Positions 17,998 through 53,024 are shown, numbered from the stretch's first letter. The stretch: DNA of 64,000 nt from Bacteroidota bacterium (GCA_947478005.1 CANJVG010000002.1:5463-69462), one strand, 5' to 3'. Translations and numbers: made by a program. The notes: generated by a model not told the origin, from the sequence alone.

Positions 17998-18291
17998 GGC
18001 AAAAACCCCTTTTTTAAGGTTAAAATTATCATTTACCCCACCCCAGAGGTGGGTACCCCCTACCTTTGAGGTGGGTGGGTTGAGCAAAAAGGTGGGTCAG
18101 TTCAGCTAAAAACTAAGAGCTCGGAGGTAAAAGCAAAGCGCCCGGAGCCTAAAGGACAGCCCCGCCACCCTTCGGCTCAGGTGCCCGAGCAAAAAGCCGC
18201 GTGACCGATGCAAAAAGCAAAGCCCGCTCACTTTTTCAGTAAACGGGCTGTGGTTTTAGCTAAACGGGCTCTCCCTTTTCTTAAGGATTAA
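17998..18291. repeat. array 2: about 11-14 phase-locked 21-bp units with a phased A/T tract and GC-rich flanks
   Basis: In 21-bp register from 18040: accccagaggtgggtaccccc / tacctttgaggtgggtgggtt / gagcaaaaaggtgggtcagtt / cagctaaaaactaagagctcg / gaggtaaaagcaaagcgcccg / gagcctaaaggacagccccgc / cacccttcggctcaggtgccc / gagcaaaaagccgcgtgaccg / atgcaaaaagcaaagcccgct / cactttttcagtaaacgggct / gtggttttagctaaacgggct. The outer units are degenerate. Confidence 0.7.
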
Positions 18292-18772
18292 CCGGGGTTG
18301 AATTATCCGTTTTACCCCCCTGTAGCGCAAAGCGTTCGCGCAAACGATTGTAGAGCGCATCGGCTCCCGGCACACCATCTTGTGCAGCGCTTTGCAGCAA
18401 ACGATAAGCAGTCAGGGCCGCAATATAGGCCTCTGAGCCTGCCAACATTTGCGTGTCCCTCAGTTTTTCATGTACCCGCTCTGACACCAGCACAATCTCA
18501 TTTAATTGATTGTAAAGCGCAAAGTCTTTTTGCATTTCTGCCGGCACAAAATAGTTCGGAAAAAAATCAGGATTGTTTACAATCACGTCAATAGCATCTG
18601 CTACAAAGTCGCGGTTCACCGCATTAATTTTTGGAAGAGATGATCGCTCATCCACATTTAAACCGGTTAGCCAAGGCAGGTCGGCCTCTACTTTGTTCAG
18701 GTCATCAATAACGGCTGTTTTTTCTGCTGCAGAAATACTCTGCGAAATTCGATTGCTTAGTAAATTTCCCAT
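18281..18772 (-). CDS. orphan family-B hypothetical protein
   Basis: 163 aa of normal composition: ...DLPWLTGLNVDERSSLPKINAVNRDFVADAIDVI..NPDFFPNYF...GSEAYIAALTAYRLLQSAAQDGVPGA... I recall this as a recurrent uncharacterised family, not verified here. Confidence 0.6.
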   Translation of the reverse strand: MGNLLSNRISQSISAAEKTAVIDDLNKVEADLPWLTGLNVDERSSLPKINAVNRDFVADAIDVIVNNPDFFPNYFVPAEMQKDFALYNQLNEIVLVSERVHEKLRDTQMLAGSEAYIAALTAYRLLQSAAQDGVPGADALYNRLRERFALQGGKTDNSTPVNP

Positions 18773-19159
18773 GTGTAAAAATTTGGTTTTTGATTAAAAA
18801 AATTGATGCCCAAAGGTATATTCGAACAGGCCGAAATTTTATTTTTTTCGCGATAAATATTTATTACCTATGTGTGCAAAAAAGCAGTGTCTTCCGCTCC
18901 AACAAACAAGAGAGCTTAATCAGTTTTTTTCATCCGGTTCAGGTATCTTCAATCTGAAAATTTTGTCGGGGTTCTTTTGCTTTTAAGGAGAAGGTGTGGC
19001 ATAGCTTTGAAAGGTTTTTCTTTTACAACTAATTCAGCCCCATAAATGGTCATGCGTATTTTTTGAAAATACATGCCAAAGAATTTAACTTGCATCGCGA
19101 AGGACATACACCAGGGACTTTATCAAGCGCCCAGCACATAGATTTAAAGAGAAGTTGAA

Positions 19160-22100
19160 ATGAAAAAAACAAGCATCAGTGCTTTTATAAGCCATCTGCT
19201 TTTATCGATTATCCTCACTGCGGCCTTTTCGGCCAAGGCACAATTGCATGTGCCGCCCTTTGTATCTTTTCCCCCGGGAACAGGCTGCGGCATTATTAAC
19301 CCTACGGTTTCGGTGGTGAGCGTGAGCCCCGCCTGCTACCGCAGTTCCGACACTATTGAGTTAAAATCCGACATTCTGGTAGATTCTATTTATGTAAAGT
19401 TTGGCGATGGCAAAGACACCATGCTCGTGAATCCGCCATTGCTTGTTTTCAATGTGGTGCATGCCTATGTTTTTTCGCCTTCCGACAGTTGCCCTACTCC
19501 TTTTCTTCAAGGTCAGCCGGCAATCGTGTGCCCTATCGAGGCCCACTTTTTTAAGAAGTGTCCCGGCAGTTATAGTTACACGCCATCGAGCACCGCTATT
19601 TCTTTTCGGTTTAAACCACGCGTTCGGTTTCTGCCTATTTACACAACCAATTATATCCAGGGACAAAAGATTCTTATCCTGTGCAATACAGTTTGTGCAA
19701 GTCTGGATTTGAGCAACTGCTGCACCAATACCTATTGGAACACTGACTCAACCGATTATACCTGGAGCTTTGGCGATGGCACCCCCGACACCACTATTTC
19801 GAACACCCCCGATGCTGTTTTTTTTGACCCTATTCATTGTTATGCCCATCCTTCATCCGGCCCTGCCTACTATACCCTGAAGCTACATGCCGAAAATACC
19901 TGCGGCATAAGCGAGGATTGGGCAAAAGTATACATAGAAGAACTGGACACATTTCAACTTCCTGCAGGACCCTACTGCACGGGCACTGCAGTCCAATTGC
20001 ACCTTACTGCTGCGGGCGGAAACGGACACGTTACGCTAAACACTACCGTTTCGCCCGGTGGTTCCGCTACTATTGTGGGTGACACCACAGCCTCTCCTTC
20101 CATTACATTTACTGCCCCCGGAAACTATACCATCACCACCATCTATGACCAATGTCCTCAAACCAAAACCATCAATATTGACGAGGGAGTAAATATTGTG
20201 CAGGGTTTTGTGCCCGATGGTTGCTTCACCGGCAACAACCAAATTATTCTCTCCGATTATTTCTCGAGTTCGGCCACCACACAAACCAATCATTTTGCAC
20301 TAAGAGACAGTGCGGGCATTCTTTTTTCAAACACTTCCGGCACCATACCGAGCAACATCATAGCCCTGCCCCATGCAGGCACCTATTATATTGCCGACAC
20401 GTCTATTACCATTTGCAACACCCTCGTTTATCGCGACACCTTTGTGCTGAACACACCTATTGTAGTGACCCTTCGACCCGACACCACGCAATGTGTGCAG
20501 ACCAATTGTATTCTGCCCTCGTTTGGCGGCATTGTTCCAACGTTGAACGGAGTGCCTGTAACGAGTGATACATTCCCGGTTACCACGGTCGGAGTGTTTC
20601 CCTTTGTTTACACACCTTCGTGTGGCAACAGTGTTACCTTCACCCTTACGGCTCAAGGCACACCGGCTTATTGTATCGATCAAAATTTTTGCGCCTATCC
20701 CGGCTTAGTAAATCTTACAGGTGATACTCCGGGAATGATTTTTTCGGTAAACGGAATTGTATCTTCTGCCATCAACGGAGATACTGCTACCAATTTCGAC
20801 AATCCATTTACAAGTGTTTATACTGACGGGCTCAACTGCACCTTCCGCGACACCGGGCATATTTATATCAGCACTTCCATTAACGCCACTGAAAACATCC
20901 CTGATACAATTTGTCAGAACTCTTCTTTTTCGGTTACGGGAACAAACGGAGCCTTGACGCCTACTATCAATTGGGGCGATGGCACCACGGATAATAATTT
21001 GTCGCACACCTATGCCGGCACGGGCATTTTCAATCTCTCCTTAAAGTTTTCGAACGGAGCATGCGACACTACAATTTTAGATACGGTTATGGTTATTCCT
21101 GCTCCCAATGCTACTTTCTCTTTTGGCGCGGATACCATTTGCAATGGAGAAACAGCTACTATTTTGTTTACACCCGATGTTCGCTACGCCTATCAATGGA
21201 CTTACCAAACGAATGTGACCGATACCATGCCGGTGATTGTTGCACAAAACATTGGCGGCACGGTGGTCTGCGAATCGCTTACCTTATCGGTGTCGTATCC
21301 CGGATGTGCCGCCATAAATGATTCCAAGCCTATTTGTTTTTTTCCGGGGGCCCAGGCGCTTATGGATTTGAACTATGATTCGGTATGCAGTCCATTGCCC
21401 ATCACCCTAATCAACAATTCAATATCTGCTGTGGGGGCCAGCTTCGAATGGTTTAGAAACGATACTTTGTTTTCAACCAGCAACACATTGGAACAATTTG
21501 ACACCCTCTACGCCTATGCCTCGGATGTAACTTATACTTTCAAATTGCGGGTTTTCTCCTGCGGTCGATACGATAGCATTGTCAAGCAGGTCATTGTACA
21601 TTCGGCTGATTTTTCACCGGCCATTTATACCGATGCGTTCCAAAAATGTGTGTATGAAGATTTTCATTTTTCTTCTTCTACCGTTCCCGGCTGCTCGGTC
21701 ACTTACGATTTTGGTGATGGCGGCATTACACAGGCTATGCCCAGCGATTCACCGGTTATCCATGCCTATCAGGCTCCCGGTGATTATACCGTTGGCTTAA
21801 CGATGTATTGTGCCTGCCAGGTAAGGTCCGACAATTTACTGGTTCATGTAAATCCGGGTCCGGTTATTTCTGCCTCGGCACCTTCTGTTGCCTGCACCGA
21901 TAGTGTTGTTACTATTCATACTCAAAACACGGGAATTATTCCGGCAAGTTCTTATCAAACCTATTTTGGTGATGGCACCTTTGATTCTTTGTCTTCTACC
22001 CCAAATCATGCCTATCACACTACCGGCACATTCAACGGATGGGTGATTGCGTTGGGCATAAACGGATGTTATTCAGACACCGCTAAATTTCATGCTACCG

Positions 22101-22906
22101 TTTATCAGACGCCCTCGGCAGACCTTACCGGTGCAGATACGTTTGCGTGTTCTTCTATTCTCACCTTGTTTTCGGTAGATACGGTTACACCGAATACCAC
22201 CTATCAATGGAATATAGTTTATGGTAACCATTCCACTTTTGTAACTACGTATGATGGCACTCTTCCGCTTTTTGCCAATGAGACAGGACTGCATTCGATA
22301 ATCCTTTCTGCTTACAACAACAACGATAGTGCCTGCAAGGCGGTTGGTGATACTTTCCATATTACTGTTTATCCATCGCCTACCGCATTCTTCACCGTTG
22401 ACCAGCCTTTTGTAAACAGTCCCGAATATGTTTTCCCGATACAAAATAAGAGTACACCTACCGGCAATACTTACTTCTGGGATTTTGGGGATAGTAAATA
22501 CAGCAATGAAATTAATCCGGGCTCACACGGCTATACTAAAACGGGTACGTATATAATTACCCTCACTGCCAGAAACGGACCTTGCGAAGACACCACCAAT
22601 CGCGAAGTGCATGTTGACCCGTTTCTTCAGGTATTCGTTCCCAATATTTTTACGCCTAACAACGATGGGAATAATGACTTCTTCCAAATGTTTGGCAACA
22701 TACAGGATATAGATTTTATGCACGTAATGATTTTCGACCGCGTTGGCGAAAAGGTATTTGACAGCTACGACCTGAACTTTAAATGGGATGGAATCTACAA
22801 AGGGAAACCGCTACAACCGGCAGTGTTTGTTTACATCATTGAAATATCGCCCATTGCTGATGAGGATATGAGGCGAATGAAAGGAAGTATTACGCTTCTC
22901 CGGTAA
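19160..22906 (+). CDS. large secreted PKD/Ig-like repeat protein with T9SS type B (gliding motility-associated) C-terminal domain
   Basis: 1248 aa with a signal peptide. Multiple ...FGDG...H.Y...G.Y.V.L PKD-like repeats. C-terminus FVPNIFTPNNDGNNDFF...KWDGIYKGKPLQPAVFVYIIE...GSITLLR. Confidence 0.85.
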   Translation: MKKTSISAFISHLLLSIILTAAFSAKAQLHVPPFVSFPPGTGCGIINPTVSVVSVSPACYRSSDTIELKSDILVDSIYVKFGDGKDTMLVNPPLLVFNVVHAYVFSPSDSCPTPFLQGQPAIVCPIEAHFFKKCPGSYSYTPSSTAISFRFKPRVRFLPIYTTNYIQGQKILILCNTVCASLDLSNCCTNTYWNTDSTDYTWSFGDGTPDTTISNTPDAVFFDPIHCYAHPSSGPAYYTLKLHAENTCGISEDWAKVYIEELDTFQLPAGPYCTGTAVQLHLTAAGGNGHVTLNTTVSPGGSATIVGDTTASPSITFTAPGNYTITTIYDQCPQTKTINIDEGVNIVQGFVPDGCFTGNNQIILSDYFSSSATTQTNHFALRDSAGILFSNTSGTIPSNIIALPHAGTYYIADTSITICNTLVYRDTFVLNTPIVVTLRPDTTQCVQTNCILPSFGGIVPTLNGVPVTSDTFPVTTVGVFPFVYTPSCGNSVTFTLTAQGTPAYCIDQNFCAYPGLVNLTGDTPGMIFSVNGIVSSAINGDTATNFDNPFTSVYTDGLNCTFRDTGHIYISTSINATENIPDTICQNSSFSVTGTNGALTPTINWGDGTTDNNLSHTYAGTGIFNLSLKFSNGACDTTILDTVMVIPAPNATFSFGADTICNGETATILFTPDVRYAYQWTYQTNVTDTMPVIVAQNIGGTVVCESLTLSVSYPGCAAINDSKPICFFPGAQALMDLNYDSVCSPLPITLINNSISAVGASFEWFRNDTLFSTSNTLEQFDTLYAYASDVTYTFKLRVFSCGRYDSIVKQVIVHSADFSPAIYTDAFQKCVYEDFHFSSSTVPGCSVTYDFGDGGITQAMPSDSPVIHAYQAPGDYTVGLTMYCACQVRSDNLLVHVNPGPVISASAPSVACTDSVVTIHTQNTGIIPASSYQTYFGDGTFDSLSSTPNHAYHTTGTFNGWVIALGINGCYSDTAKFHATVYQTPSADLTGADTFACSSILTLFSVDTVTPNTTYQWNIVYGNHSTFVTTYDGTLPLFANETGLHSIILSAYNNNDSACKAVGDTFHITVYPSPTAFFTVDQPFVNSPEYVFPIQNKSTPTGNTYFWDFGDSKYSNEINPGSHGYTKTGTYIITLTARNGPCEDTTNREVHVDPFLQVFVPNIFTPNNDGNNDFFQMFGNIQDIDFMHVMIFDRVGEKVFDSYDLNFKWDGIYKGKPLQPAVFVYIIEISPIADEDMRRMKGSITLLR

Positions 22907-22926
22907 AACAGAACAAAGAAAGAAGC

Positions 22927-24447
22927 TTAGTGCTTAAAATGTCTAACTCCGGTTGTTACCATAGCCTGCCCGTTTTTGTTGGCGGCATCTATCGAGTCCT
23001 GGTCTTTAATACTACCTCCGGGCTGAGCAATGGCAGTAATGCCGGCCTCGGCAGAAATACCTACACAATCTGGAAATGGAAAAAAAGCATCACTGGCCAT
23101 CACAGCACCGTTCAAATCAAAACCGAACTCGCCAGCTTTGCGGATAGCGTTTTGCAAAGCATCCACTCGTGAAGTTTGTCCGCAGTTGCTGCCAACCAGC
23201 TGTTTGTTTTTAACCAAAGCAATGCCGTTGCTCTTTAAATGCTTAACGGCAATAACCGCAAACTCTAAATCGGAAATTTCTTTTTCTGTTGGCGTCTTGG
23301 TGGTAACCAATTTGAATTCGTTTTTGCCCTCTGCTTTAGTATCAGCATCCTGTTCCAAAACTCCATTGAGTAAGTTCTTGAAAATTTTTGCGGTAGAAAT
23401 CCTTGCCTTTTGCTTTAGCAGGATGCGGTTCTTTTTTGATTTCAAAACAGCCAAAGCATCATCATCGTAACCCGGTGCAGTGAGTACTTCGAAGAAAAGT
23501 GAATTCATTTCATTAGCCGTTGCCAAATCAATTGGGCGGTTAACAGCAATTACTCCACCGAAGGCTGACGTGGTGTCGCAGGCAAAAGCCGCTTTATAAG
23601 CTTCGCAAACATTCTCGCGACTGGCCAATCCACAACTATTAGTATGCTTAATGATAGCCACCGTTGGTTCTGTAAATTCTGACACCAGATTGATGGATGC
23701 ATCTACATCTACCAGGTTGTTATAGGAAAGTTCTTTGCCATTGAGGATTTCAAACAACTCATCCAAATTGCCATAAAAAACACCGCGCTGATGTGGGTTT
23801 TCGCCATAGCGCAGAACCTTTGCGTTGAGTTCACTCTTTTTGAAAACCTCAAATTTGAATTCGTTATTGAAGTAATTGAAGATAAGAGTATCATAGTGCG
23901 AGGAAGTCATAAACGCTTTAGCCGCAAACTTCTTTCTATCCTCTAAATCGGTTTCGCCATTCTTGGCTTGCAGTATTTCCAGCAGCGATTCATAATCGTT
24001 GCGCGAGGAAACAATAACGGTGTCGTTAAAGTTCTTTGCAGCCGCGCGAATCAAACTAATGCCGCCAATGTCAATTTTTTCAATTACATCATCTTCGCCT
24101 TTCCCGGCCTTCACTGTTTCTTCAAAGGGGTAGAGGTCAACAATTACCAAATCAATTTCTGGTATTTCATACTGTGCCATTTCTTTTTGGTCTGTGGCAT
24201 TATCTCTTCTTCCAAGAATTCCTCCAAATACTTTTGGGTGAAGTGTTTTTACTCGTCCGCCAAGTATAGAAGGATACGAAGTAAGGTCTTCTACTGCCGT
24301 AACCTTTATGCCTAAGCCTTCGATAAAACTTTGCGTGCCTCCGGTGCTGTATATTTTTACACCGAGTTTGTCGAGTTCTTTTACGAGTAAATCCAGCTTG
24401 TCTTTGTAATAAACCGAAATTAGGGCTGACTTAATTTTTTTGCGCAT
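22927..24447 (-). CDS. purH: bifunctional AICAR transformylase / IMP cyclohydrolase
   Basis: 506 aa with ALISVYYKDKL, STGGT, GGRVKTLHP, IDLVIVDLYPF and a C-terminal ...GVRHFKH. Confidence 0.95.
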   Translation of the reverse strand: MRKKIKSALISVYYKDKLDLLVKELDKLGVKIYSTGGTQSFIEGLGIKVTAVEDLTSYPSILGGRVKTLHPKVFGGILGRRDNATDQKEMAQYEIPEIDLVIVDLYPFEETVKAGKGEDDVIEKIDIGGISLIRAAAKNFNDTVIVSSRNDYESLLEILQAKNGETDLEDRKKFAAKAFMTSSHYDTLIFNYFNNEFKFEVFKKSELNAKVLRYGENPHQRGVFYGNLDELFEILNGKELSYNNLVDVDASINLVSEFTEPTVAIIKHTNSCGLASRENVCEAYKAAFACDTTSAFGGVIAVNRPIDLATANEMNSLFFEVLTAPGYDDDALAVLKSKKNRILLKQKARISTAKIFKNLLNGVLEQDADTKAEGKNEFKLVTTKTPTEKEISDLEFAVIAVKHLKSNGIALVKNKQLVGSNCGQTSRVDALQNAIRKAGEFGFDLNGAVMASDAFFPFPDCVGISAEAGITAIAQPGGSIKDQDSIDAANKNGQAMVTTGVRHFKH

Positions 24448-24531
24448 GATGTGTGTTTGGAATTGCGCGCAAAAGTAAAATTTGGAGAAAGTGAAACTTG
24501 GGGAGTTATACCAAAGTTTTCAACGAAGAGA

Positions 24532-25095
24532 TCAGCGAAGTAAGTCTTCAATAGCCTTTACATACCATTCATGCTCTAATTGCTGAACTTTAGCTGAAAG
24601 CAATTCCGCAGTATCATTTGGGTCGACTACGACTTTCTTTTGCAAAAGAATTTCCCCGTCATCATAAACTTCATTCACGTAATGAATGGTGATTCCTGTT
24701 TCCGTATCTTTATTGGCAAGCACGGCCTGATGTACTTTGAGTCCATACATTCCTTTGCCTCCATGTTTTGGTAAAAGAGCAGGGTGTATGTTGATGATCT
24801 TCTTTGGAAAATTTTGCAACAGAAAAGCGGGAATTAGTTGTAGAAATCCGGCCAGAACAATCATATCAATTTTCTGTGCGTTCAAAACCTTCATCATTAC
24901 CTCCTCCTTATTCAAAGAATTCTTGTTGACAATAGCAGAAATGATTTTGTGTTCATGTGCTATCTTCAGAACCCCGGCAGACGGATTATTTGTAAGCACC
25001 AAAGCCACCCGTATTTCGGGATGGTTGGCAAAATGTTCAATTATAGCCTTGGCATTTGTTCCATTGCCGCTGGCAAAAATGGCGATGTGTTTCAT
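24532..25095 (-). CDS. purN: phosphoribosylglycinamide formyltransferase
   Basis: 187 aa with IAIFASGNGTNA, INIHPALLP and GITIHYV.E.YD.G. Confidence 0.9.
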   Translation of the reverse strand: MKHIAIFASGNGTNAKAIIEHFANHPEIRVALVLTNNPSAGVLKIAHEHKIISAIVNKNSLNKEEVMMKVLNAQKIDMIVLAGFLQLIPAFLLQNFPKKIINIHPALLPKHGGKGMYGLKVHQAVLANKDTETGITIHYVNEVYDDGEILLQKKVVVDPNDTAELLSAKVQQLEHEWYVKAIEDLLR

Positions 25096-25116
25096 CGTTT
25101 GAATCAGTAGCTGAAT

Positions 25117-42263: not shown

Positions 42264-42267
42264 AAGT

Positions 42268-42432
42268 CACACAGCCTTGAACTTTTGGTTCTTTTGGTTC
42301 AAGCCAAAAGAACGTTTACTATATAGAAAAACTGCCATTGCCAGTGTTTTAGCATAGCTTACCAAAACCTCACAGCCTTGATTTTTTGGTCCTTTTGCAT
42401 CAAGGCAAAAGGACAGAAACCAAATAGAAAAA
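42268..42432. other. two copies (103 bp apart) of a ~65-nt element with two interlocking stems and compensatory substitutions
   Basis: Minus-strand copy A: TTTTTCTAT..GTTCTTTTGG-CTTGAA-CCAAAAGAAC-CAAAAG-TTCAAGGCTGTG. Copy B: TTTTTCTAT..GTCCTTTTGC-CTTGAT-GCAAAAGGAC-CAAAAAA-ATCAAGGCTGTG. Confidence 0.6.
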
Positions 42433-42526
42433 CACACCCCACCTCTACACCAAACCCTTTTCAAAAAGCGAATTTTGCTGTCAAAAGAACAACCAATTTA
42501 ACAACCCCTCCAAAACACCCCCACTC

Positions 42527-42736
42527 GCGGTCATCCATCATTAGAGCGCGGTCATCGGTCATAATGGCGCAGTCACTCATCATTAAGCCGCGGTCATCGG
42601 TCATAATTTCGCGGTTATTCATCATTTAAGCGCGGTTTCCCATCATTTTCCCTCGGTCACCCATCATTTTAACAACTCCCTCCATCACTCCCCAGCGTCA
42701 CTTCATCATAATCCTACGGTCAACCATCATTAACCT
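42527..42736. repeat. array 3: exactly ten contiguous 21-bp units (210 bp), + strand consensus GCGGTCAnCCATCATTAAnnn
   Basis: gcggtcatccatcattagagc / gcggtcatcggtcataatggc / gcagtcactcatcattaagcc / gcggtcatcggtcataatttc / gcggttattcatcatttaagc / gcggtttcccatcattttccc / tcggtcacccatcattttaac / aactccctccatcactcccca / gcgtcacttcatcataatcct / acggtcaaccatcattaacct. No phase slip. Confidence 0.9.
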
Positions 42737-42743
42737 CCGGTAT

Positions 42744-42786
42744 AAAACAAAAATGCCGTTGCGTTCTTTCAAACCACAACGGCATT
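42744..42786 (-). terminator. rho-independent terminator of 42830..43564
   Basis: The minus strand reads AATGCCGTTG-tggtttgaaagaacg-CAACGGCATT followed by TTTTGTTTT. Confidence 0.75.
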
Positions 42787-42829
42787 CCGTCTTTTGTATT
42801 CAAGTCCCCTTTAGGGGATTTAGGGGTTT

Positions 42830-43564
42830 CTACTTTTTCTTCTTAGTAGGCTTTCTAAACTTAATCTTCGTCACCAACTTAGCCCTTGCCGAGCTAAACC
42901 CAGCCGCCCCCTGCACATAATCCTTACAAGCCGCAGCCCTCACCAACAATCCATCATTCTCATTATAAAGCACCCGATCCCGCTCAATTCTCGACACCTC
43001 CACAGGCGCTATTATAGTTCCAATATTATCATTCGCTGCCTTCATCGCCACCCACAACGTAGTCAACGTAGCCGTCTGCAACGGCACCTCATTCGGAGCA
43101 TAAAAACTATCCGATTTATACAACTCCACCAACTGCCCAAACGCATCCGCCTTCTGCACATAACTCTGATGGCTCGTGCTCACACTATTCGGGTCAGGCG
43201 TCCCGTCCGGCAACTTCTTCACCTTCACCCCAAACCCTCTAATCCTATCCGCCAACCCCTTTGCATCCTTCTTTACTTGTTTGCTGGCTTTTGTGCTATT
43301 AAAAATATTCAACGTCCTTGTCACCAGCTTATTCACCGGCTTATTCAAAATCTCCCGGTCATTAATCGGGTTCTTCGACTTCTGCAACGCCACCGTCAAA
43401 GTAGTATGAGCCGTGTCGCCCGCAGTCCATGCGGTCGTCATGTTCACAATCGTTAGGTCCGTGTTGCTCGGGTCATAATCTGCACCAAAAGCCGTGCAGG
43501 TATCAATCAGCAATTTAAAGTTTGAAATGTTTACAGCGTGTCCTGTTTCTGAAGTGCTAGCCAT
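42830..43564 (-). CDS. orphan family-C hypothetical protein
   Basis: 244 aa starting MASTSETGHAVNISNFKLLIDTC..., with a basic tail KFRKPTKKKK. It is monocistronic with its own terminator. The coding strand is strongly G-rich and C-poor (the + strand line at 43201-43260 has 30 C and 4 G). Confidence 0.65.
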   Translation of the reverse strand: MASTSETGHAVNISNFKLLIDTCTAFGADYDPSNTDLTIVNMTTAWTAGDTAHTTLTVALQKSKNPINDREILNKPVNKLVTRTLNIFNSTKASKQVKKDAKGLADRIRGFGVKVKKLPDGTPDPNSVSTSHQSYVQKADAFGQLVELYKSDSFYAPNEVPLQTATLTTLWVAMKAANDNIGTIIAPVEVSRIERDRVLYNENDGLLVRAAACKDYVQGAAGFSSARAKLVTKIKFRKPTKKKK

Positions 43565-43722
43565 TGTCTTAGTTTTTAGTTTAAAAAAATGATTCGTAAA
43601 AAAGTTAAGGTCTGTTCTTGTTTCTGTTTTGTGTTAGCGTGAACGAATGTTCAGTTTCTTATTTCAAAAAAATAAAAAATCCCTGAAATCACCAAACCCA
43701 AAATAATTCGTGTCATTCATGC

Positions 43723-43756
43723 CAAAAAAAATGCCCGATGAAATTCATCAGGCATT
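43723..43756 (-). terminator. rho-independent terminator of the amidase gene
   Basis: The minus strand reads AATGCCTGATGAAtttCATCGGGCATT followed by TTTTTTTT. Confidence 0.75.
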
Positions 43757-43783
43757 TTGTGTTCGCATTTACTGTTGTCTCTC

Positions 43784-45202: not shown

Positions 45203-45283
45203 AATTTCTGTTTGTAAAAAGTCAACGGTTAAACGGCTTCAAAATTTTAAATCGCTCTGCAAAAAAACTTCTTCTTTGCAGAT

Positions 45284-46507
45284 ATGAATGAGAACCGCCC
45301 ATATTTATTTTTACTCCTCAGCTTTCTATCGTCTCTATCTTCTTTTGCGGTTGAAAAAACAGCTTCCGCTTCCATAACCGCCACGGTGGTTCAAACCGTT
45401 CCCAACTCCTTTCTTCAACTGCGGCTTAGCAACGATTCGGTTTCGAAGAATGATATACTGAATGAAGAAATAGTGGACATGGTAAAAGTAGATGAGCGCG
45501 ATAAGAAAGTTCCTACGCGCTATACCACGCATCAGGGAGGTTTCATTGGCGGATGGTTTATCCGCATGATTGGATTTTACTGGCACGCGGTGGACCGGCA
45601 GCGCCATAAATTTGTAGGCACCAACCGAAACGGCCTTTCTATGCCGGGCGAAAAAGATGAACTGACCGAACACGATATCAACTTCAATCTGATTCCGCAT
45701 TTGCCCAATTACCTAAACATGGTGTACGATACCCGTATAGCACAAACCAAACGCAGACAGTTTAGAAGAGCCGAAAACCAGGACAAAACTAAACCACCAT
45801 TTATTGCACCTACTTTAGAAACGGCTGAGGAATATGATTTGCACTGCGAACTAACCCCACCCAAAAGAATGCGCGACTCAGTGAACACATTGTTCTACCC
45901 CTGCATGCACGGCTACAATCTCGACAAACACCAGAATTTTTGCGACATGAAACCAACGGTGGGTATGTATGGTGTGCTGGTCTTGGACTGCAATCACTCC
46001 TGCCATCCCGAAATTCATCCTTACGAATGGTTGTGGTGGCTTCGCCTCACCGAAAGCGAAAAAGCAAAGAACAACTTCAACAAAGATTGGATGATTGGAT
46101 TCTTTAAAGAAAGCAGCAATCGTTTTGTGTTGTGGAGTTTGCCTCCGCGCGTGGGCACTATCACTGTTCCTTTCATTTTTAAAACTTCCGAAACCAAAAG
46201 CTATTTGCAGTTAAATCAACTCGTCACCGGCAGATTTCGCCCGAAAGGAATCAAGCGCATGAAAGAATTACCTGCAACCACTTCGGAATTTAATTTCAGC
46301 AACACAACACTCAATCTCAATTTAGGCAATGGCAAAACCTTTCCATTGCAACTGCGCACCAATGGAGTCACCAAAACTTCGGCACTTCGCTGGTGGGTAA
46401 GCGATGTTCACACCGATGCCGCCAACCAATGGGTATGGGGCTATTTCAATATGGTGGTTAGTGTAAGAGATGGCTACACAGCCAGGTTGGAAACCGTGGC
46501 GGAATAA
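45284..46507 (+). CDS. hypothetical secreted protein
   Basis: 407 aa with a signal peptide. Cys/His-rich central segment (CMHGYNLDKHQNFCD...LDCNHSCHPEIHPYEWLWW). No family recognised. Confidence 0.55.
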   Translation: MNENRPYLFLLLSFLSSLSSFAVEKTASASITATVVQTVPNSFLQLRLSNDSVSKNDILNEEIVDMVKVDERDKKVPTRYTTHQGGFIGGWFIRMIGFYWHAVDRQRHKFVGTNRNGLSMPGEKDELTEHDINFNLIPHLPNYLNMVYDTRIAQTKRRQFRRAENQDKTKPPFIAPTLETAEEYDLHCELTPPKRMRDSVNTLFYPCMHGYNLDKHQNFCDMKPTVGMYGVLVLDCNHSCHPEIHPYEWLWWLRLTESEKAKNNFNKDWMIGFFKESSNRFVLWSLPPRVGTITVPFIFKTSETKSYLQLNQLVTGRFRPKGIKRMKELPATTSEFNFSNTTLNLNLGNGKTFPLQLRTNGVTKTSALRWWVSDVHTDAANQWVWGYFNMVVSVRDGYTARLETVAE

Positions 46508-46558
46508 TTCCCTTTTTGCTAAGCACATTTATACATTTACTCAAAATGTATTCAAGCT

Positions 46559-48250
46559 ATGGAAACCAAAGAACTCCTCCATCAGTTAGCCGAAATTCAA
46601 TTTCGTTTTGATAAAAACACAGCCGAAAAAAAAATTGCAGCTATAGAAGAACTGCAAGAAAAGCGGTTCACACACAGCGATGAAATCACCGCCTTCCACG
46701 ATCGCCTGCTTTGCATCCTCGCCTTCCCCGAAAACAAAAAAGTATTTGATGCCGCAGAAAAGGCACTGCATCTGTTAGGTGAAAAAACACAGGCATTTCT
46801 CCTGACCGCGAACGAAGTGGAGCTATGGAAAATAACCGAATCCGCCATCGCCCACTCCACCATTTGCGCTTCGTTTAGTTACGAATTAATAAAGTGGCTG
46901 AACGAATATTATAAGGAAGACCTATCTTTTTCAAGCTGCGAGGCATCGAAAGAAATAATAAGCCATGTGTTTAAGCAGATACTTCCACCGGCCGTTGCCG
47001 AATCGCTTTTCGACAATCATGAACACACGTTGGAATCGTTGGCAAAAAAAGCCTGCGGCCAGTCAGAACTGACCGATGTGTTTCAATGGACACTAACACA
47101 GTTCCTTGCCTCTTCCGTAAGCGACAAATCGAAAGAACAGATCTTCGAGCAACTCTATATTTATATCAATTGGAAAACCAACGAATCATCCCCCACGCGC
47201 AGTTTTGCCCGCTCCAATACCCCGCAGAAATATTTTTTCCAATCATCGCAACTAATTCGCCATGCAGACATAAAGAAAGTTTTCACCGACAAAAAACTAC
47301 AACCCGTCTCGCTCAACAACGCGCAGAAAAAGAACCTTTGTGACCTTGCCAAAGGTGTTCTCTGTTCCACCTATCGCGAAATTGACCCAATCACCTATGC
47401 CGAAAACAACGACACTGAATTATACGATATGGGAAGGGGAATTACAATGGCACTTTATTTTATGCGCCCTCCTTTTCGCTTGTCCTGCGAAAGCTATGTT
47501 TCGTATATGGCATTTCGAAATGGGGTGCCTGTTTCCTACGGAGGTGGCTGGATGTTTTTTGACCGTGCAAAATTAGCAGGGAATATATTTCCTCCGTTTA
47601 GAGGGGGAGAATCCGCTTTATTGTTTGCTCAACTCTATCGCCTCTATCATCTGCGCTTCGGGGTCAATTGTTTTCAGGTGGACCCGTATCAAATTGGGGA
47701 AAAGAACCACGATGCTATTGCTTCGGGTGCATTTTGGTTTTACCATCGTTTCGGTTTCCGACCAACGAGCAAAGCGCTTCAGCAATTAGCCGAAGAAGAG
47801 TTTGTGAAAAGAACAGCTGATAAAAACTATCGCACTCCTGCTGGCGTGCTGCGTAAATTTGCAACCACCGAAATGCTTTTGAATTTATCGCCTGCCACCC
47901 ATGCGGCTCATCTGGAGGTCTTGAAACAAATGCAAACCCTGGTAGCGGAAGAATACCACGGAAACTTCAATGCCTATTTTCTTGCTTGTTTTTTCGAGTT
48001 GCAAAGATGCTGCAGACAAAGGAAGGTGACCTTACCCAAACACTTACAAGGTAATCCCATGGCTATGGAGCTTTGCGGCATAGTGGCTGTTTTCAGCAGC
48101 TTCACCGAATTCAATCAAAGAGAATTAAAGAAACTTGTTGCTGCACTGGAAGAAAAATCGTTTGGGAGTGAGCGAAAGTTTTTAGAACTGTTCGATAGTA
48201 TCAAAAAGCTAAAGAGACACGTTTACGGTTTCTGGGTATCTGAGAAATAA
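46559..48250 (+). CDS. hypothetical protein with possible GNAT-like C-terminal half
   Basis: 563 aa with a helical N-terminal half. The C-terminal GGGWMFFDRAKLAGNIFPPFRGGESALLFAQLYRLY...ASGAFWFYHRFGFRP resembles an acyltransferase-type beta-bulge/FY..GF motif. This is weak. Confidence 0.5.
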   Translation: METKELLHQLAEIQFRFDKNTAEKKIAAIEELQEKRFTHSDEITAFHDRLLCILAFPENKKVFDAAEKALHLLGEKTQAFLLTANEVELWKITESAIAHSTICASFSYELIKWLNEYYKEDLSFSSCEASKEIISHVFKQILPPAVAESLFDNHEHTLESLAKKACGQSELTDVFQWTLTQFLASSVSDKSKEQIFEQLYIYINWKTNESSPTRSFARSNTPQKYFFQSSQLIRHADIKKVFTDKKLQPVSLNNAQKKNLCDLAKGVLCSTYREIDPITYAENNDTELYDMGRGITMALYFMRPPFRLSCESYVSYMAFRNGVPVSYGGGWMFFDRAKLAGNIFPPFRGGESALLFAQLYRLYHLRFGVNCFQVDPYQIGEKNHDAIASGAFWFYHRFGFRPTSKALQQLAEEEFVKRTADKNYRTPAGVLRKFATTEMLLNLSPATHAAHLEVLKQMQTLVAEEYHGNFNAYFLACFFELQRCCRQRKVTLPKHLQGNPMAMELCGIVAVFSSFTEFNQRELKKLVAALEEKSFGSERKFLELFDSIKKLKRHVYGFWVSEK

Positions 48251-48285
48251 AAAATCCTCTTCTGAATTTCAGAAGAGGATTTCCT
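48251..48285. terminator. bidirectional terminator
   Basis: aaaAATCCTCTTCTGAattTCAGAAGAGGATTtcc forms a 13-bp perfect stem between convergent genes. Confidence 0.75.
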
Positions 48286-48303
48286 TTAGAACAATCAATC
48301 CAT

Positions 48304-51300
48304 TTATCGAATCAAGGTAGCTGCACCTTTTTCATCTGCCACTATCCCGTTGATATAAACGACATGATACAAAAAGATGTAGGTGCCTATCGGCTGCTCT
48401 TTGCCCCGAATAGTTCCATCCCATCCATCGCCAGTTTGCATATTCAGGTTTTCATACACCATCTCTCCCCAACGATTAAACACTCTGAATTCCAGTTTCT
48501 GCACATTGCGTGTAATGGCTACTAAACGGTCATTCACATTATCGCCATTCGGAGAAAATGCCGTTGGCACTAACACTACAAACTTATCAGGAGCACAAGA
48601 AGTAGGGTCAACTGAAGGGTCTGACAAAGTGGACTGCGCATTTGCCACACAGCCATTGACATCTGTAACTGTTACGCTGTAAGAACCTTTGCGTCTTTGT
48701 TCAATAAACGATGCCGTATCCAGTGAAGAAGTGTTCCACAGATAAACGTATGGGCTTGCTCCGCCTTCGGTAGAAGCAACTACTGCGCCCGTTGAATCGC
48801 CAATGCAAGATGGGTCAATGCCAACTAATTTCACCACAAATGGTAGCGGTTTGTTTACGCTAACGGAACCTGTTGTTGTGCATCCATTCGAATCGGAAAC
48901 AAGCACCGTGTAATTACCAGCGCCTGCTTTCGGATTTTGAAGTGCAGAACTAAAGTTATTGCTTCCGGTCCAACTGTAGGTGAACGGTGACACGCCACCC
49001 GAAAGAACAGTTACTGCGACAGAACCGTTTGAAGAATCTACACAAAGCGGCTCAACTGCTAAAAGTGTTACTACAAACGGCACCGGCAAATTAACGCCAA
49101 CCGTTTCAGAGGCCGTGCAATTATTGGTATCCCTAACCAAAACCGTATAGGTTCCTGCGCCTGCTTGTGGGTTTTGCTGAGTAGAAGTAAAATTGTTGGT
49201 TCCTGTCCAGCTATAAGAATAGCCCGGTGTTCCTCCAGTAACTACAGTAGTAATAGCACCATTGGCCGAATCGGCACATAATGGCGAAGAACCTGTGAGA
49301 GCAATCTGAATAGCTGCTGGTGAAGTAATGGTTCCCGCAACGGTTGTATCGCAACCATTGGCATCCTTAATTCTTACAGAGAACGTGCCTTCACCTAATC
49401 CAGCAACATTTGTAGAGGAAGTAGAATCACTCCAGAAATAATTGTATGGTGCAGTCGCTCCGCTTACAGCAATGGAAGCTGTACTGTTGCTGGCACCATT
49501 GCAAAGTAAATTAGTAGTAGTAAGTGCAATGGAATAAGCAGTAGGTTGACTAAGTGTAGTATCGGACGAAACACTGCAACCGTTTGCATCAGTAATCGTA
49601 ACGGTATGCGTTCCTGCAGCTACATTATTTAGATTTTGAGAAGTGGCATTGGTTGGTGCACTCCATTGATAAGAATACGGCTGCACTCCTCCGTTCACAT
49701 TCACATCCACAATTCCATCTGTTCCACCAGGGCAGCGAGGATTGAAAGTGAAAGAAACATTTGAAGTCAATAATGTTGGCTCTGTAACGGTGTAGGTATT
49801 TCCTGCAGTGCATCCTATATTATCCGTCACCGTTATTGAATAAGTGCCGGGGCCTATATTTGGATTATCCTGAGTGGCCACTGAATTTGACCAGGCAAAA
49901 GTAAGTGGGCTTTGTCCTCCTGTGGAAGAAAGGTATACTCCTCCATTAGCGGCACCAAAGCATTGCACATTCTTCAAACTATCAAGTGTAATAATAACCG
50001 TAGTGGTATTTGGAACGTTTGCTGTAGCTGATGAGGTGCAACCACTGAAATCGGTAACAGTTACATTAAAGTTTCCGGCACAAAGCAATACTGCATTTTG
50101 CAATTGTTGTGGTGGAATTGAGTTCCATGCGTAGGAATAAGGAGTAGTTCCTCCGGCTGCATTAGCCGTTGCTGAACCATCACAGGCGCCTCCACAGGTA
50201 ACCGGATTGCCGGTTGCCAAAACAGAAATTTGCGCAGGAACGTTAATGGTGACAGAGGCCGAAGCATTACATCCATGAGCATCCGTTACAGTAACATTAT
50301 AATTGCCTCCGGTTAATCCCGAAATTGATGTAACGTTTCCGGCATTGTTGCTCCAGGCATAAGTAAATGGCGCAACGCCTCCCTGAATAGTCGAGTTAAT
50401 TTGTCCATCACTGCCACTAAAGCAGGCAACATCCTGTTTCGTAAGATTTACACCGAAAACAGACCCAGGATTATCAGACACCGAAATAGTGAAGGTGCCA
50501 TAGTCGGTTGCTGTTTTTCCATCTACAACTATATAATAGTCGCCTGCCTGGCAGATAGAATAGGAAAGAACAGACTGCGTTCCACAACCATTATCATCGG
50601 AAGTATCGGGAACGGCCTGATTGCAGGCGCTGAATAAATAAAGGTAGCTGTCAAACTGAGCACCGCTCACCCCACAAACAGAAGCTGTAATACCAATAGT
50701 ACCATTTACATGAAATTTATACCACACATCGTTGCCCGGAGAAAGGGTGCTGCTGTTGCCATAACACTCGTTGCTGTTGAAATGAGTAAGCGGAAGTCCG
50801 CCATTGGTAAGCGTTCCTAAATCAATGGCGTTGTTACAGGCATCGCCCTTGGTATAGCGCCAGTAGCTTTCAATTTTTGGATAGTAATAATCCCGGGCTC
50901 CGTTATTGGCTTTAATGTATCCACCGGTGCTTTGGCCATGTGTATACCACTGGCAGGGTGGCCCCAAACGATAATTGAGATTGTTTTTGTAAGGAGAAAC
51001 AGCATTCTGATAATCATCCTCCTCACTAAAAAGGCAGCCGATAAACGGAATATTGGCGCAGCAGGAAGAAGCCTGAAATGTGCAACGGCTACCATTGGTT
51101 CCGCAGGAAGTAATACCGCTGATAACTGCAAAGTCAGTCGGAATATCGTCTTCCCAACAATCCTCTTTTATTTCAAAAAACTGGGGAACAGTAGGTGTTG
51201 GATACGTGTAGTTGAACAACACCGTATTAAAGTCGGCTGAATATTCAGGACCGCCACCCGTCATAGGCAAATCGGCCTGTAAACAGGCACCACCCTGCCA

Positions 51301-51573
51301 GCCAAGTCCACTGATATTTCCCTGGTCTTCTGCCCAATAGTGAAAAGTAAACTCATCACCCGCCAGCGAGCCCGGCAAGTTGAAATTACCTACTTGAAGA
51401 GATACTCCATCAAGGTAGCTGGCACTTGGGTATTGCACTTTTACATCGCGCAACCGAACCTGTAATTGAATAGGCCCATCAGACAAGGTTTGTGCCGAAA
51501 TGATTTGAGCGGCTGAAATGAAAAGGACGGCAGCCACTAATTTTTTGTAAATATTCATCATAGAAAAGTTCAT
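48304..51573 (-). CDS. T9SS type B cargo with eight SprB-type repeats
   Basis: The start is taken at MNFSMMNIYKKLVAAVLFISAAQIISAQ. A ~400-aa N-terminal region is followed by eight ~75-aa repeats of the form C.G..(D/N)G......GG..P(Y/F).(Y/F).W. C-terminus VPTAFSPNGDNVNDRL...FNRWGEMVYE...WDGT..G...P.GTY. Confidence 0.85.
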   Translation of the reverse strand: MNFSMMNIYKKLVAAVLFISAAQIISAQTLSDGPIQLQVRLRDVKVQYPSASYLDGVSLQVGNFNLPGSLAGDEFTFHYWAEDQGNISGLGWQGGACLQADLPMTGGGPEYSADFNTVLFNYTYPTPTVPQFFEIKEDCWEDDIPTDFAVISGITSCGTNGSRCTFQASSCCANIPFIGCLFSEEDDYQNAVSPYKNNLNYRLGPPCQWYTHGQSTGGYIKANNGARDYYYPKIESYWRYTKGDACNNAIDLGTLTNGGLPLTHFNSNECYGNSSTLSPGNDVWYKFHVNGTIGITASVCGVSGAQFDSYLYLFSACNQAVPDTSDDNGCGTQSVLSYSICQAGDYYIVVDGKTATDYGTFTISVSDNPGSVFGVNLTKQDVACFSGSDGQINSTIQGGVAPFTYAWSNNAGNVTSISGLTGGNYNVTVTDAHGCNASASVTINVPAQISVLATGNPVTCGGACDGSATANAAGGTTPYSYAWNSIPPQQLQNAVLLCAGNFNVTVTDFSGCTSSATANVPNTTTVIITLDSLKNVQCFGAANGGVYLSSTGGQSPLTFAWSNSVATQDNPNIGPGTYSITVTDNIGCTAGNTYTVTEPTLLTSNVSFTFNPRCPGGTDGIVDVNVNGGVQPYSYQWSAPTNATSQNLNNVAAGTHTVTITDANGCSVSSDTTLSQPTAYSIALTTTNLLCNGASNSTASIAVSGATAPYNYFWSDSTSSTNVAGLGEGTFSVRIKDANGCDTTVAGTITSPAAIQIALTGSSPLCADSANGAITTVVTGGTPGYSYSWTGTNNFTSTQQNPQAGAGTYTVLVRDTNNCTASETVGVNLPVPFVVTLLAVEPLCVDSSNGSVAVTVLSGGVSPFTYSWTGSNNFSSALQNPKAGAGNYTVLVSDSNGCTTTGSVSVNKPLPFVVKLVGIDPSCIGDSTGAVVASTEGGASPYVYLWNTSSLDTASFIEQRRKGSYSVTVTDVNGCVANAQSTLSDPSVDPTSCAPDKFVVLVPTAFSPNGDNVNDRLVAITRNVQKLEFRVFNRWGEMVYENLNMQTGDGWDGTIRGKEQPIGTYIFLYHVVYINGIVADEKGAATLIR

Positions 51574-51633
51574 TTTTAGGTGGGTAAAAGTAGTTTTTTT
51601 CGCAAGCCAAGGAAGGTGAGTTTGTATAGGCAT

Positions 51634-51668
51634 AAAAAAAGCGCGGAGGGTGGCCTTCGCGCTTTTTT
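51634..51668 (-). terminator. terminator after 51711..52148
   Basis: aaaaaaaGCGCGGAGGgtggCCTTCGCGCtttttt has A- and T-runs on both sides. Confidence 0.65.
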
Positions 51669-51710
51669 GGTTTATAGTTGGTCAGGCGACCAACAACGGC
51701 TTAGCAATGA

Positions 51711-52148
51711 TTATGGAAACGAAAATGTCAGTGAACCACATTTAGACAAAGTCCCAGAACCAGTATATTCAGAAGGATAAAGAACATAGCCACTTACTTG
51801 TGTAGTTTTGATAGAACAATAGCCGGGTGACATGCTGACCGTTAAAGTTCCGTTGCCAGAAACACGACCTTTATAAATACTATTAACATAACAGTTGTAT
51901 GGGTTGCTGCTATAACTGTCGAACACAATATTGCCGGTGTTGTTTATTTCACAAGCGGCCCGATTGTCGTTCTGACAGTTAATGCCAGAAAATCCTGACG
52001 GACAATTGCAAGAGCCGTTAATACAAGAGCTACCATTTAGGCAGACCTTACTTTCACAGGCATCTTTTTTACAACCACTAAAACTTATTGTGAAAGTTGT
52101 AATTGTTAGGATTACCAATAGGTTCGTAAATACTATTCTCATTTTCAT
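51711..52148 (-). CDS. small lipoprotein with EGF-like Cys-rich module
   Basis: 145 aa with the lipobox ISFSGC. CESKVCLNGSSCINGSCNCPSGFSGINCQ matches the six-Cys EGF-like spacing. Confidence 0.55.
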   Translation of the reverse strand: MKMRIVFTNLLVILTITTFTISFSGCKKDACESKVCLNGSSCINGSCNCPSGFSGINCQNDNRAACEINNTGNIVFDSYSSNPYNCYVNSIYKGRVSGNGTLTVSMSPGYCSIKTTQVSGYVLYPSEYTGSGTLSKCGSLTFSFP

Positions 52149-52242
52149 TGTCTGTTTTTTTATTTTTCGCCTACTCTTTGTTCCCCTTTTCGGCTTACGA
52201 GGTTTTTGTTTTTTATACTTCTTAAAATAATTCCCTACCGAT

Positions 52243-52277
52243 AAAAAAATCCTCGCCCAACTACTGAGCGAGGATTT
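52243..52277 (-). terminator. rho-independent terminator of 52305..53024
   Basis: The minus strand reads AAATCCTCGC-tcagtagttgg-GCGAGGATTT followed by TTTTTAT. Confidence 0.75.
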
Positions 52278-52304
52278 TGAAGACCATAAAAAAGACGGCT
52301 GCTG

Positions 52305-53024
52305 TTACGCTATCACCACTATAATAATATCTGTCCAAGGCCCTGCCAGTTCAGGATGTTTGGTGTTATACCAGCGCCCAAATGCTATCAATCGTTTGCC
52401 CACATTTTGCGGCCCGCAGTGGAACACAAATAGCGCTTTTGTAAAAATCTCCTTCGTCATGCCTGTGTCGTTAGGGTTAGGCATGGGCATTCCCGGCCCC
52501 GGCATGGGCATATTGCCCCCGTCCACAATAGCAAAGGCCAGTTGCAAACTATCGGCTCCATCGGCTTTGCTGGCGCGGTGGTCATCGTGGCTGGTGCGGC
52601 AGCTAAAATCTAAATCGCCCCCGCCCAAGGGCGTAGTTTTTATAGCTACTCCATCCTTAATGCTGGCAGTAGGCGTGGTGGGCGCATGGCGCTCCAACAC
52701 AAAATTAAAGGCATGAGCATCGGCATCGGTAGCTGCCGGGCTTACCGCCATAATATTGAGCAGCGGCTGCCCAAAGGTTTTAAAGCTCGCAATGAATTTA
52801 TGGGTTTCGTCCTTCACCGCAGGGGTGCATTGGTTCGGGTCCTGGTATTTTGGATACAGTGTATCGCGCCAATACACGCGCTTCGTTTTCCAGTCGTCCA
52901 TGTTTTGCCCGCTTAAACCCAGCCGCGTGCCGTTGTCAGGAGGTCCTCCGGCTATTATATAGTTAGCCGTGGTGTTAATGTAACCATTAAAAAGATGAAT
53001 TGTTTCTGGGATTCTACTTGCCAT
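52305..53024 (-). CDS. orphan family-A hypothetical protein (intact paralog of 6716..7420)
   Basis: 239 aa. It shares N(G/A)TRL.L, W...Y...TP..V, F..F and the C-terminal Y....E.AGP with the 6716 gene. It has a Pro/Gly/Met-rich insert, MPMPGPGMPMPNPN. Monocistronic with its own terminator. Confidence 0.65.
   Translation of the reverse strand: MASRIPETIHLFNGYINTTANYIIAGGPPDNGTRLGLSGQNMDDWKTKRVYWRDTLYPKYQDPNQCTPAVKDETHKFIASFKTFGQPLLNIMAVSPAATDADAHAFNFVLERHAPTTPTASIKDGVAIKTTPLGGGDLDFSCRTSHDDHRASKADGADSLQLAFAIVDGGNMPMPGPGMPMPNPNDTGMTKEIFTKALFVFHCGPQNVGKRLIAFGRWYNTKHPELAGPWTDIIIVVIA

Follow-up and report, generated by a model that had tools for sequence, protein, structure and literature searches.

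The DNA examined here, referred to below as the window, is a stretch of 64,000 nucleotides from a Bacteroidota bacterium (GCA_947478005.1 CANJVG010000002.1:5463-69462), in which four small stand-alone genes, A1, A2, B and C, each lie beside an array of short tandem repeats (Table 1). The first-pass annotation had placed these genes in three families, A (with A1 and A2 as its members), B and C, and had located them in islands that also hold 21-base-pair (bp) arrays; one array is indeed found beside each of the four genes. The open reading frames (ORFs) that it gave for B, C and A2 are exact, and the one that it gave for A1 is not, since that frame crosses an in-frame TAG at 7355-7357. Beyond the TAG the frame reads YINPRGEAGPPSVPYAFKII and runs to 7420. 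Full-length relatives of A1 comprise 222-235 residues and are about 21 residues longer than A1 past its stop. The codon that corresponds to the TAG mostly encodes Trp in these relatives, inside a conserved ITWYxNxxGExGPxSxP motif (C-terminal WYxNxxGExGPxSxP). Because the relatives extend past the stop and mostly carry Trp at this codon, A1 is, on the evidence of the alignment, a truncated copy with a TGG-to-TAG nonsense change, whether as a pseudogene, as a strain variant or through a sequencing error.

Table 1. Genes, terminator-like hairpins and repeat arrays of the window, with dispersed repeats from related loci. Free energies (dG) are RNAfold values in kcal/mol; TRF, Tandem Repeats Finder; pI, isoelectric point.
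Feature	Position	Strand	Details
A1 array, upstream of gene	6261..6510	+	about 11 units TGAGAAnnnATCTCAnnnnnn, alternating TGAGA/TCTCA arms; TRF 6292-6498
Gene A1, ancestral frame	6716..7420	+	family A, deep A1 subfamily; called ORF 6716-7357, 213 aa
A1 terminator-like hairpin and U-run	7460..7493	+	dG -24.6; follows the ancestral stop (7420), not 7357
B array, downstream of gene	18021..18232	-	about 9 degenerate units with T-rich centres (GCTTTTTGC, CCTTTAGG); TRF 18069-18147
B intrinsic-terminator-like hairpin	18210..18260	-	between gene B and array; dG -29.9
Gene B	18281..18772	-	163 aa, pI 4.7; exact ORF
C array, downstream of gene	42530..42740	-	10 units, AATGATGnnTGACCGCGnnnn on the gene-sense strand; TRF 42526-42668
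C intrinsic-terminator-like hairpin	42746..42791	-	between gene C and array; dG -29.1
Gene C	42830..43564	-	244 aa, pI 9.6, Lys-rich tail; exact ORF
A2 intrinsic-terminator-like hairpin	52246..52278	-	3' of gene; dG -25.9
Gene A2	52305..53024	-	239 aa; exact ORF; C-terminal motif RWYNTKHPELAGPW
A2 array, upstream of gene	53085..53300	-	about 10 units, KTC-N4-GAM dyad (CTTCGTGCGAAG, TGTCGCACGACA); TRF 53104-53223
Repetitive extragenic palindrome- or MITE-like repeats by C paralogs	L012 7863-8700; L013 4723-4930, 6332-6414; L019 4605-4802

The whole window was scanned for periodic DNA by autocorrelation over 126 bp with a threshold of more than 50% self-match, and TRF agrees with the outcome. 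Only lags of 21 and 42 pass 0.5, and they do so in four regions (6261-6466, 18021-18232, 42479-42778 and 53015-53340), each of which adjoins one of the four genes, and the rest of the 64 kb holds no periodic DNA. The chance that four of four arrays would fall within 210 bp of these four genes on random placement is about 5e-5. The arrays lie upstream of A1 and A2, where the A2 array stops about 60 bp ahead of its ATG, and downstream of B and C, beyond the terminators. They consist of four different units, the motifs of which are essentially absent from the rest of the window. The C array registers with the consensus of the C-family arrays and does not vary, in sequence or in copy number, among three assemblies of the same organism. 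Strong hairpins with U-runs follow all four genes (dG -24.6 to -29.9 kcal/mol), so that the terminators noted in the first pass after the A and C genes are borne out by RNAfold, and B has one too. The C terminator hairpin is identical in two further assemblies of the same organism. In one of these comparisons (L132 1036-1060) the stretch between the C stop and its terminator (42792-42829, with a small hairpin cccctaaagggg) differs by a 21-bp insertion or deletion, the assemblies being otherwise 98% identical. Between the A1 array and the A1 ATG a TAnnTTTG-like box (TAAATTTG) was read by eye. Two elements of about 30 nucleotides (ccaaaa..tcaaggctgtg.g.ttttgg), each capable of forming a hairpin, lie downstream of the C array at 42267-42430. 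Rfam identifies no family within the window.

The association of gene and array recurs in other genomes. For family C, 38 loci were collected from GTDB species representatives, from different metagenome-assembled genomes (MAGs), and 36 of them were usable. A lag-21 array begins within about 400 bp after the C gene in 33 of the 36; in the three exceptions it is upstream or further away, and six control lags are almost empty at these loci. For family B, a lag-21 array follows the gene in 16 metagenomic loci, and in many of the remaining loci the array has a period of 22/44, 42 or 63 or is a weaker one of 21 bp. A terminator hairpin precedes the array in every array-bearing B locus that was read in sequence. 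The order is reversed in family A, in which an array precedes the gene in six of seven loci (the window twice, L004, L127, L128 and, weakly, L130; there is none in L126). Together with the window, more than 60 related loci show a period of 21 or 22 bp or a multiple of it. The carriers span Bacteroidota and Ignavibacteria, and the period is kept while the proteins diverge to 31-60% identity. Across the array from A, B or C, the neighboring genes show no conservation among loci, and we conclude for this reason that the arrays belong with A, B and C. The first-pass expectation of a link to arrays beyond this genome thus held for all three families. As to its companion question, whether A, B and C are also found with one another, mutual clustering elsewhere was not seen within 4-5 kb, and members of different families are shown to share a genome only in the window and, as A plus C, in assembly JBBRND01.

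A conserved partner gene beyond the arrays was sought and none was found, save for a 120-aa protein in seven B loci and scattered integrase genes and cargo genes of the type IX secretion system (T9SS). The 120-aa protein is conserved about 90 bp past a 22/44-bp array in L057, L059, L071, L077, L078, L082 and L083 (L083 4090-4452); it has the look of a helix-turn-helix protein with a coiled-coil tail and has no Pfam match. It could be the binder of those 22/44-bp arrays. Tyrosine-recombinase-like genes adjoin 21-bp arrays in L010 (8343-9698), where the array enters the 5' end of the called ORF, and in L031 (6490-8121). In L001 (6708-6820), and in L015 too, the C homolog has a 7-bp array (CAGTAGG, about 16 copies) over its stop codon, followed by the hairpin and the main 21-bp array. 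In L004 (4400-4686), 3 copies of a 49-bp repeat and 1.9 copies of a 45-bp repeat are found about 1 kb upstream of the array of the A homolog. Dispersed repeats of 80-140 bp, resembling repetitive extragenic palindromes (REP) or miniature inverted-repeat transposable elements (MITE), flank C paralogs of the Flavobacteriales MAG Vibo_18-Q3-R45-57_BATAC.153 (Table 1).

The proteins themselves had been described in the first pass as uncharacterized and recurrent in Bacteroidota, and this description stands. A full scan of 1.84 billion representative proteins yielded 112 relatives of A1, and there are 41 of A2, 155 of B (one from a cultured Flavobacterium) and 183 of C, those of A1, A2 and B all unnamed or "hypothetical". 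The same is true of the best 120 of the 183 C matches, which show 55-75% identity; their sources are MAGs of Flavobacteriales, Bacteroidia, Chitinophagales and Ignavibacteria. One cultured carrier of B is Flavobacterium sp. TBRC 19031 (L125). Pfam, NCBIfam, PHROGs and PADLOC contain no match to any of the four proteins (best E-values 0.014-0.37, far below the cut-offs), the precomputed Pfam annotation is blank for every listed homolog of A2, B and C, and profile searches of the three families against PDB sequences gave nothing meaningful. Among the 2.9 million viral contigs of IMG/VR there are no relatives of A, B or C, and the 72,556 plasmids of PLSDB, searched with C and B and not with A, gave only one weak B-like match. 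Two outcomes had been named at the outset as contrary to the first-pass annotation, that the proteins belong to well-characterized families and that they do not co-occur with arrays; what was found is the opposite in each case.

The N-terminal and ER..LPK-type motifs of the first-pass annotation prove to be true signatures in the C and B homolog alignments. The consensus of family C is MASNSETGHAVNISNFKLLID. The alignment of family B contains 22 invariant columns, the invariant residues including E42, P47, K48, I49, N53, F56, D59 and P72, with R43 and N67 present in at least 90%. A1 and A2 had been called paralogs. Their identity is only about 18% and BLASTP between them reveals no similarity, though the two subfamily profiles match over their full length with an hhalign probability of 99% (E 8.3e-18, 216 columns), and their C-terminal motifs align, W-Y-x-N...G-P-x-S with R-W-Y-N-T-K...G-P-W-S. 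Because this profile-profile match spans the full length at 99%, the term is correct, and A1 and A2 are, by the criterion of profile comparison, remote paralogs of one family. No mutual relationship among the A, B and C profiles is detectable with hhalign. An N-terminal domain of the form helix-loop-"GLT"-helix may be common to the families, an impression gained by eye.

Inspection of the arrays shows that most units hold a short dyad. Examples are TGAGA-N5-TCTCA (A1, L128 and L130), CTTCG-tg-CGAAG (A2) and TTCCGGAA (L127), and at B loci GGTTCGAACC, TATTGGTG-cttaa-CGCCAATA, CCTC-n-GAGG and CAACT-ca-AGTTG. Dyads with spacers of 0-2 nucleotides are frequent (e.g. GGTTCGAACC, CCTCnGAGG, CAACTcaAGTTG, TTCCGGAA and CTTCGtgCGAAG), and such spacers suit dimeric DNA binders and make poor RNA hairpins. 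The period remains constant between orthologous loci while the sequence of the dyad changes; unit sequences diverge fast, and copy number varies between genomes. The C arrays are asymmetric, and a core, aGGAtGcgAaa.TGAt (GGATGCGAwwnTGA), is common to 28 loci. The similarity of these arrays to their mean profile is 8.07, compared with 6.67 for column-shuffled controls, the 95th percentile of which is 7.31. A reading of the core as a mini-ORF (ATG-N6-TGA) fits only about half of the arrays in a hand tally of consensus units. Open frames do cross arrays, in the window (6220-6565, 18106-18231, 42461-42625 and 53037-53384) and elsewhere (L001 6911-7426 and L004 5589-5960), and public annotations of 40-170-aa proteins across some arrays are probably artefacts of gene calling. 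Coding heptad repeats were considered, 21 bp being seven codons and some frames being open, and were ruled out by broken frames and by the arrays of period 22/44, since a period of 22 excludes a coding heptad; in the C array of the window, stops that break the frames were read by eye.

Family C has a further property, which concerns the composition of its strands. The first-pass annotation had remarked on an excess of G over C on the coding strand of the window gene, and this skew is real: GC skew is 0.33 for the coding strand and 0.67 at third codon positions, an outlier among the 44 ORFs of the window, the other 43 of which range from -0.39 to 0.25. Among C orthologs the third-position skew (GC3 skew) extends from -0.78 to +0.88 and follows the GC skew of the neighboring array (r 0.85, p 4e-8, n=26). 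When the loci are grouped into 18 clusters at 80% protein identity the correlation persists (r 0.86, p 5.5e-6), and there is no correlation of the gene skew with that of the flanks (r 0.11). GC3 and TA3 skews co-vary (r 0.71) with a C-to-T and A-to-G signature, and a C gene is therefore either G3/T3-rich or C3/A3-rich. The asymmetry is limited to gene plus array, about 1.2 kb. Of the array-adjacent loci, the four whose skew is most negative have arrays that best fit the C consensus as its reverse complement, with the caveat that the calls of array orientation for L014, L037 and L038 could be aided by composition alone. The unit of L018 equals that of L009 at 20 of 21 positions only after it has been reverse-complemented, and the proteins at these loci share less than 80% identity. 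Over array and gene alike, G and T are enriched on the strand that reads GGATGCGA, regardless of the direction of the gene. This coupling of gene and array suggests transcription or single-strandedness in a fixed sense. Family B, in which no such coupling exists (r -0.05, n=58), serves as an internal control.

The AlphaFold2 (AF2) model of C, with a predicted local distance difference test (pLDDT) score of 88, is all-helical and consists of two bundles, for which Foldseek searches against the PDB and against BFVD (viral predicted structures) gave only generic helical matches with E >0.1. That of A2 (pLDDT 92) combines an N-terminal three-helix domain with a C-terminal seven-strand beta-sandwich that resembles FN3 (Foldseek E 1.7e-4, probability 1.0), the other matches being generic FN3 and C2 sandwiches. 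In spite of this likeness, family A differs from FN3 proteins in that it has no Pfam fn3 sequence match, in that A1 and A2 lack a signal peptide, judged by eye from the N-termini, and in that it adds the three-helix domain, which is unique to it, and an invariant R-W...P...G-W motif at the C-terminus. B, read by eye from its sequence, appears mostly helical. Family C is basic (median pI 9.2), B acidic (pI 4.4-5.3) and A near neutral.

It was of interest to compare these loci with known systems in which short repeats accompany genes. In iterons and centromere-like arrays (the R6K and pSC101 iterons, F sopC, R1 parC and TP228 parH), direct repeats of about 17-22 bp, or longer units with inverted repeats, place sites about 21-23 bp apart on one face of the helix, and the array immediately adjoins the gene whose product acts on it. 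The repeats described here have a similar two-helical-turn spacing (21/22 bp or a multiple). They differ from these systems in that A1, A2, B and C match no Rep, ParA/ParM, ParB/KorB or ribbon-helix-helix protein (Pfam, NCBIfam and PDB profiles), in that they occupy chromosomal sites among housekeeping genes, with four different arrays in 64 kb, and in that the proteins are absent from IMG/VR and are represented in PLSDB (C and B only) by the single weak B-like match. Type III toxin-antitoxin systems (ToxIN, CptIN and TenpIN) also combine a protein gene, adjacent short tandem repeats and a terminator hairpin. Their units, however, are about 34-45 nucleotides long and number 2-6, whereas those found here are 21-22 nucleotides long and number 8-30. 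Only in family A is the array upstream; in B and C the order is the reverse, namely gene, terminator and then array, and no sense-strand terminator separates the arrays from A1 and A2. Nor is there a match to ToxN, AbiQ or CptN (Pfam, PADLOC), and the predicted folds of C and A2 differ from theirs. REP sequences and bacterial interspersed mosaic elements (BIME), as well as the heptamer short tandemly repeated repetitive (STRR) sequences of cyanobacteria, are extragenic palindromic or short tandem repeats that follow the 3' ends of transcription units, and in this the present arrays resemble them. REP sequences, however, form one dispersed family per genome, whereas here the unit differs from array to array and the motifs are not dispersed in the window; the fixed period of 21-22 bp and the tie to specific protein families are not features of REP or STRR sequences. 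Clustered regularly interspaced short palindromic repeats (CRISPR) are 23-55 bp long and are separated by unique spacers, whereas these units are contiguous and without spacers, and there is no PADLOC or Pfam match to cas genes. The literature contains no description that we could find of such arrays or of their pairing with genes. Since the defining features of the closest systems are lacking here and the literature search was negative, we rate the gene-plus-array pairing as of a kind not yet described, which fits no CRISPR, type III toxin-antitoxin, iteron/centromere or REP class.

As a whole, these results point to a conserved genetic module of two parts, for which no description was found in the literature. 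Each gene would be the protein-coding half, and the other half would consist of about 8-30 units repeated in tandem at a period of 21-22 bp, super-periods of 42, 44, 63 or 84 counting as the same type of module. The order would be specific to the family: array, A gene and terminator in the one case, and B or C gene, intrinsic terminator and array in the other. The reading that we prefer, to which we give a probability of about one in three, makes the arrays DNA platforms that act in cis, are helically phased and are coupled to the neighboring genes. They would act as double-stranded DNA, presenting short and often dyad-symmetric sites two helical turns apart, on which protein would load cooperatively along a single helical face; the loaded protein would control or insulate the adjacent stand-alone gene. 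In family C the best candidate for the binder would be the product of the gene itself, which is basic and has a Lys-rich tail, and the arrays of which have the conserved core GGATGCGAwwnTGA. For family A and for the acidic family B, a host factor is likelier as the putative binder. A role at the level of DNA is favored because the period is limited to 21-22 bp and its multiples in three unrelated families, as helical phasing predicts, because many dyad spacers are of 0-2 nucleotides, because the arrays lie outside terminators and because the C unit survives inversion nearly unchanged, as expected of an element of duplex DNA. Several observations weigh against this reading. The dyads are wholly different between orthologous B loci, which is awkward for a single sequence-specific factor, and one type of array, with TGAGA/TCTCA arms, is found with A proteins that share only about 18% identity. 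No DNA-binding domain is recognizable in A, B or C (Pfam, NCBIfam), C is modelled as a helical bundle and A2 as a helical domain with an FN3-like domain, and B, at pI 4.4-5.3, is too acidic to be a likely DNA binder. Finally, a passive duplex platform does not predict arrays that are asymmetric and strand-biased, nor a gene whose synonymous-site skew follows that of the array, as in family C.

This last point is the reason that an RNA-level module comes close behind, for the skew of family C is better explained by an array that is transcribed or exposed in one sense. To such a module we give a probability only slightly lower than that of the DNA reading. A transcript of fixed sense would bind, be processed by or titrate the neighboring protein or a host RNA-binding factor, each unit of 21-22 nucleotides being one binding site, with a logic like that of type III toxin-antitoxin systems or of a sponge RNA; array transcripts would be expected in the GGAUGCGA sense. 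The asymmetric core conserved in 28 loci above its shuffled null agrees with this, as does the G+T-richness of one strand over array and gene, which fits a transcription unit of fixed sense. The palindromes of the B and A arrays vary in sequence yet stay self-complementary, like structure-constrained RNA, and the order of array and gene in family A recalls ToxI-ToxN. The B and C arrays, however, sit past strong terminators, no sense-strand terminator was found between the arrays and A1 or A2, and dyads with loops of 0-2 nucleotides cannot form hairpins. No Rfam match occurs in the window and no nuclease or RNA-binding domain in the proteins (Pfam, NCBIfam, PADLOC), and an RNA-level role gives no reason for three unrelated protein families to share a unit of 21-22 nucleotides.

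The skew might instead be the scar of repeated single-strand exposure, if gene and array moved or amplified together as a mobile or selfish cassette, possibly via a single-stranded intermediate, the array providing the cis site at which a trans-supplied recombinase or HUH-type enzyme acts. Confinement of the skew to gene plus array and its deamination-like C-to-T/A-to-G signature would accord with such a history. So would the multiple copies of C in some genomes, of which one Flavobacteriales MAG has five, at 80-91% nucleotide identity. Where their homology begins differs from pair to pair, either about 100 bp before the ATG or at or close to the start codon, and in several pairs it reaches into the arrays. 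The distribution is patchy and the conservation high, tyrosine recombinase genes adjoin the arrays of L010 and L031, and two 340-bp contigs of the isolate Limnovirga soli KCS-6 (L042 and L043) consist of an internal C fragment only, which suggests a collapsed repeat with several near-identical copies of C. We nevertheless consider a cassette of this kind unlikely, given the near-absence of these families from the viral and plasmid collections described above. No terminal repeats, target duplications or associated transposase were identified, housekeeping genes of an ordinary kind form the flanks, three assemblies of one organism carry an identical array, and B shows no coupling of skew. The least probable explanation, and one to which we give little credence, is that the arrays have no function, being slippage-prone intergenic DNA kept by shared descent or heptad-repeat coding sequence, decayed or real. 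The quick divergence of the arrays, their variable copy number and the annotated ORFs that cross some of them would be natural on this view. It does not readily accommodate the retention of the period across Bacteroidota and Ignavibacteria at 31-60% protein identity, its occurrence in three unrelated families, the non-coding arrays of period 22/44 and the stops in the C array of the window, a C core conserved above its shuffled null, or the 20 of 21 unit positions kept between loci with proteins less than 80% identical.

The setting of the modules in the window is chromosomal and of a housekeeping character, the neighbors including QueA, RodA/FtsW, an amidase and T9SS cargo genes. Cargo genes with Por_Secre_tail or CHU_C C-terminal domains often adjoin modules (window 5189-5743, 19160-22906 and 48304-51633, L004 and the P0154 locus), which may only reflect the abundance of such genes in these genomes. 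The interval from the A2 array to the end of the RodA/FtsW gene contains a perfect (AC)18 microsatellite (53351-53386).

Taking the three families together, we tentatively propose that bacteria of the Fibrobacteres-Chlorobi-Bacteroidetes (FCB) group carry an unrecognized class of gene-plus-array modules, in which at least three unrelated small proteins would each function jointly with a phased 21-22-bp array. The array of family C would impose a persistent strand-specific state, whether an R-loop, single-stranded DNA or unidirectional transcription, that rewrites the synonymous sites of the gene according to the orientation of the array, with GC3 skew reaching a magnitude of 0.88. If the modules are real, several hundred proteins now listed as "hypothetical" in environmental Bacteroidota and Ignavibacteria would gain a shared context, and periodicity at a lag of 21 or 22 would be a simple genomic signature by which further modules might be found. 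The analysis also draws attention to artefacts of gene calling, in the form of spurious ORFs called over the arrays. Family C would then be a natural case in which the skew of a non-coding array predicts the synonymous-site composition of the neighboring gene, and it would allow direct tests of strand-specific mutation or selection at one locus.

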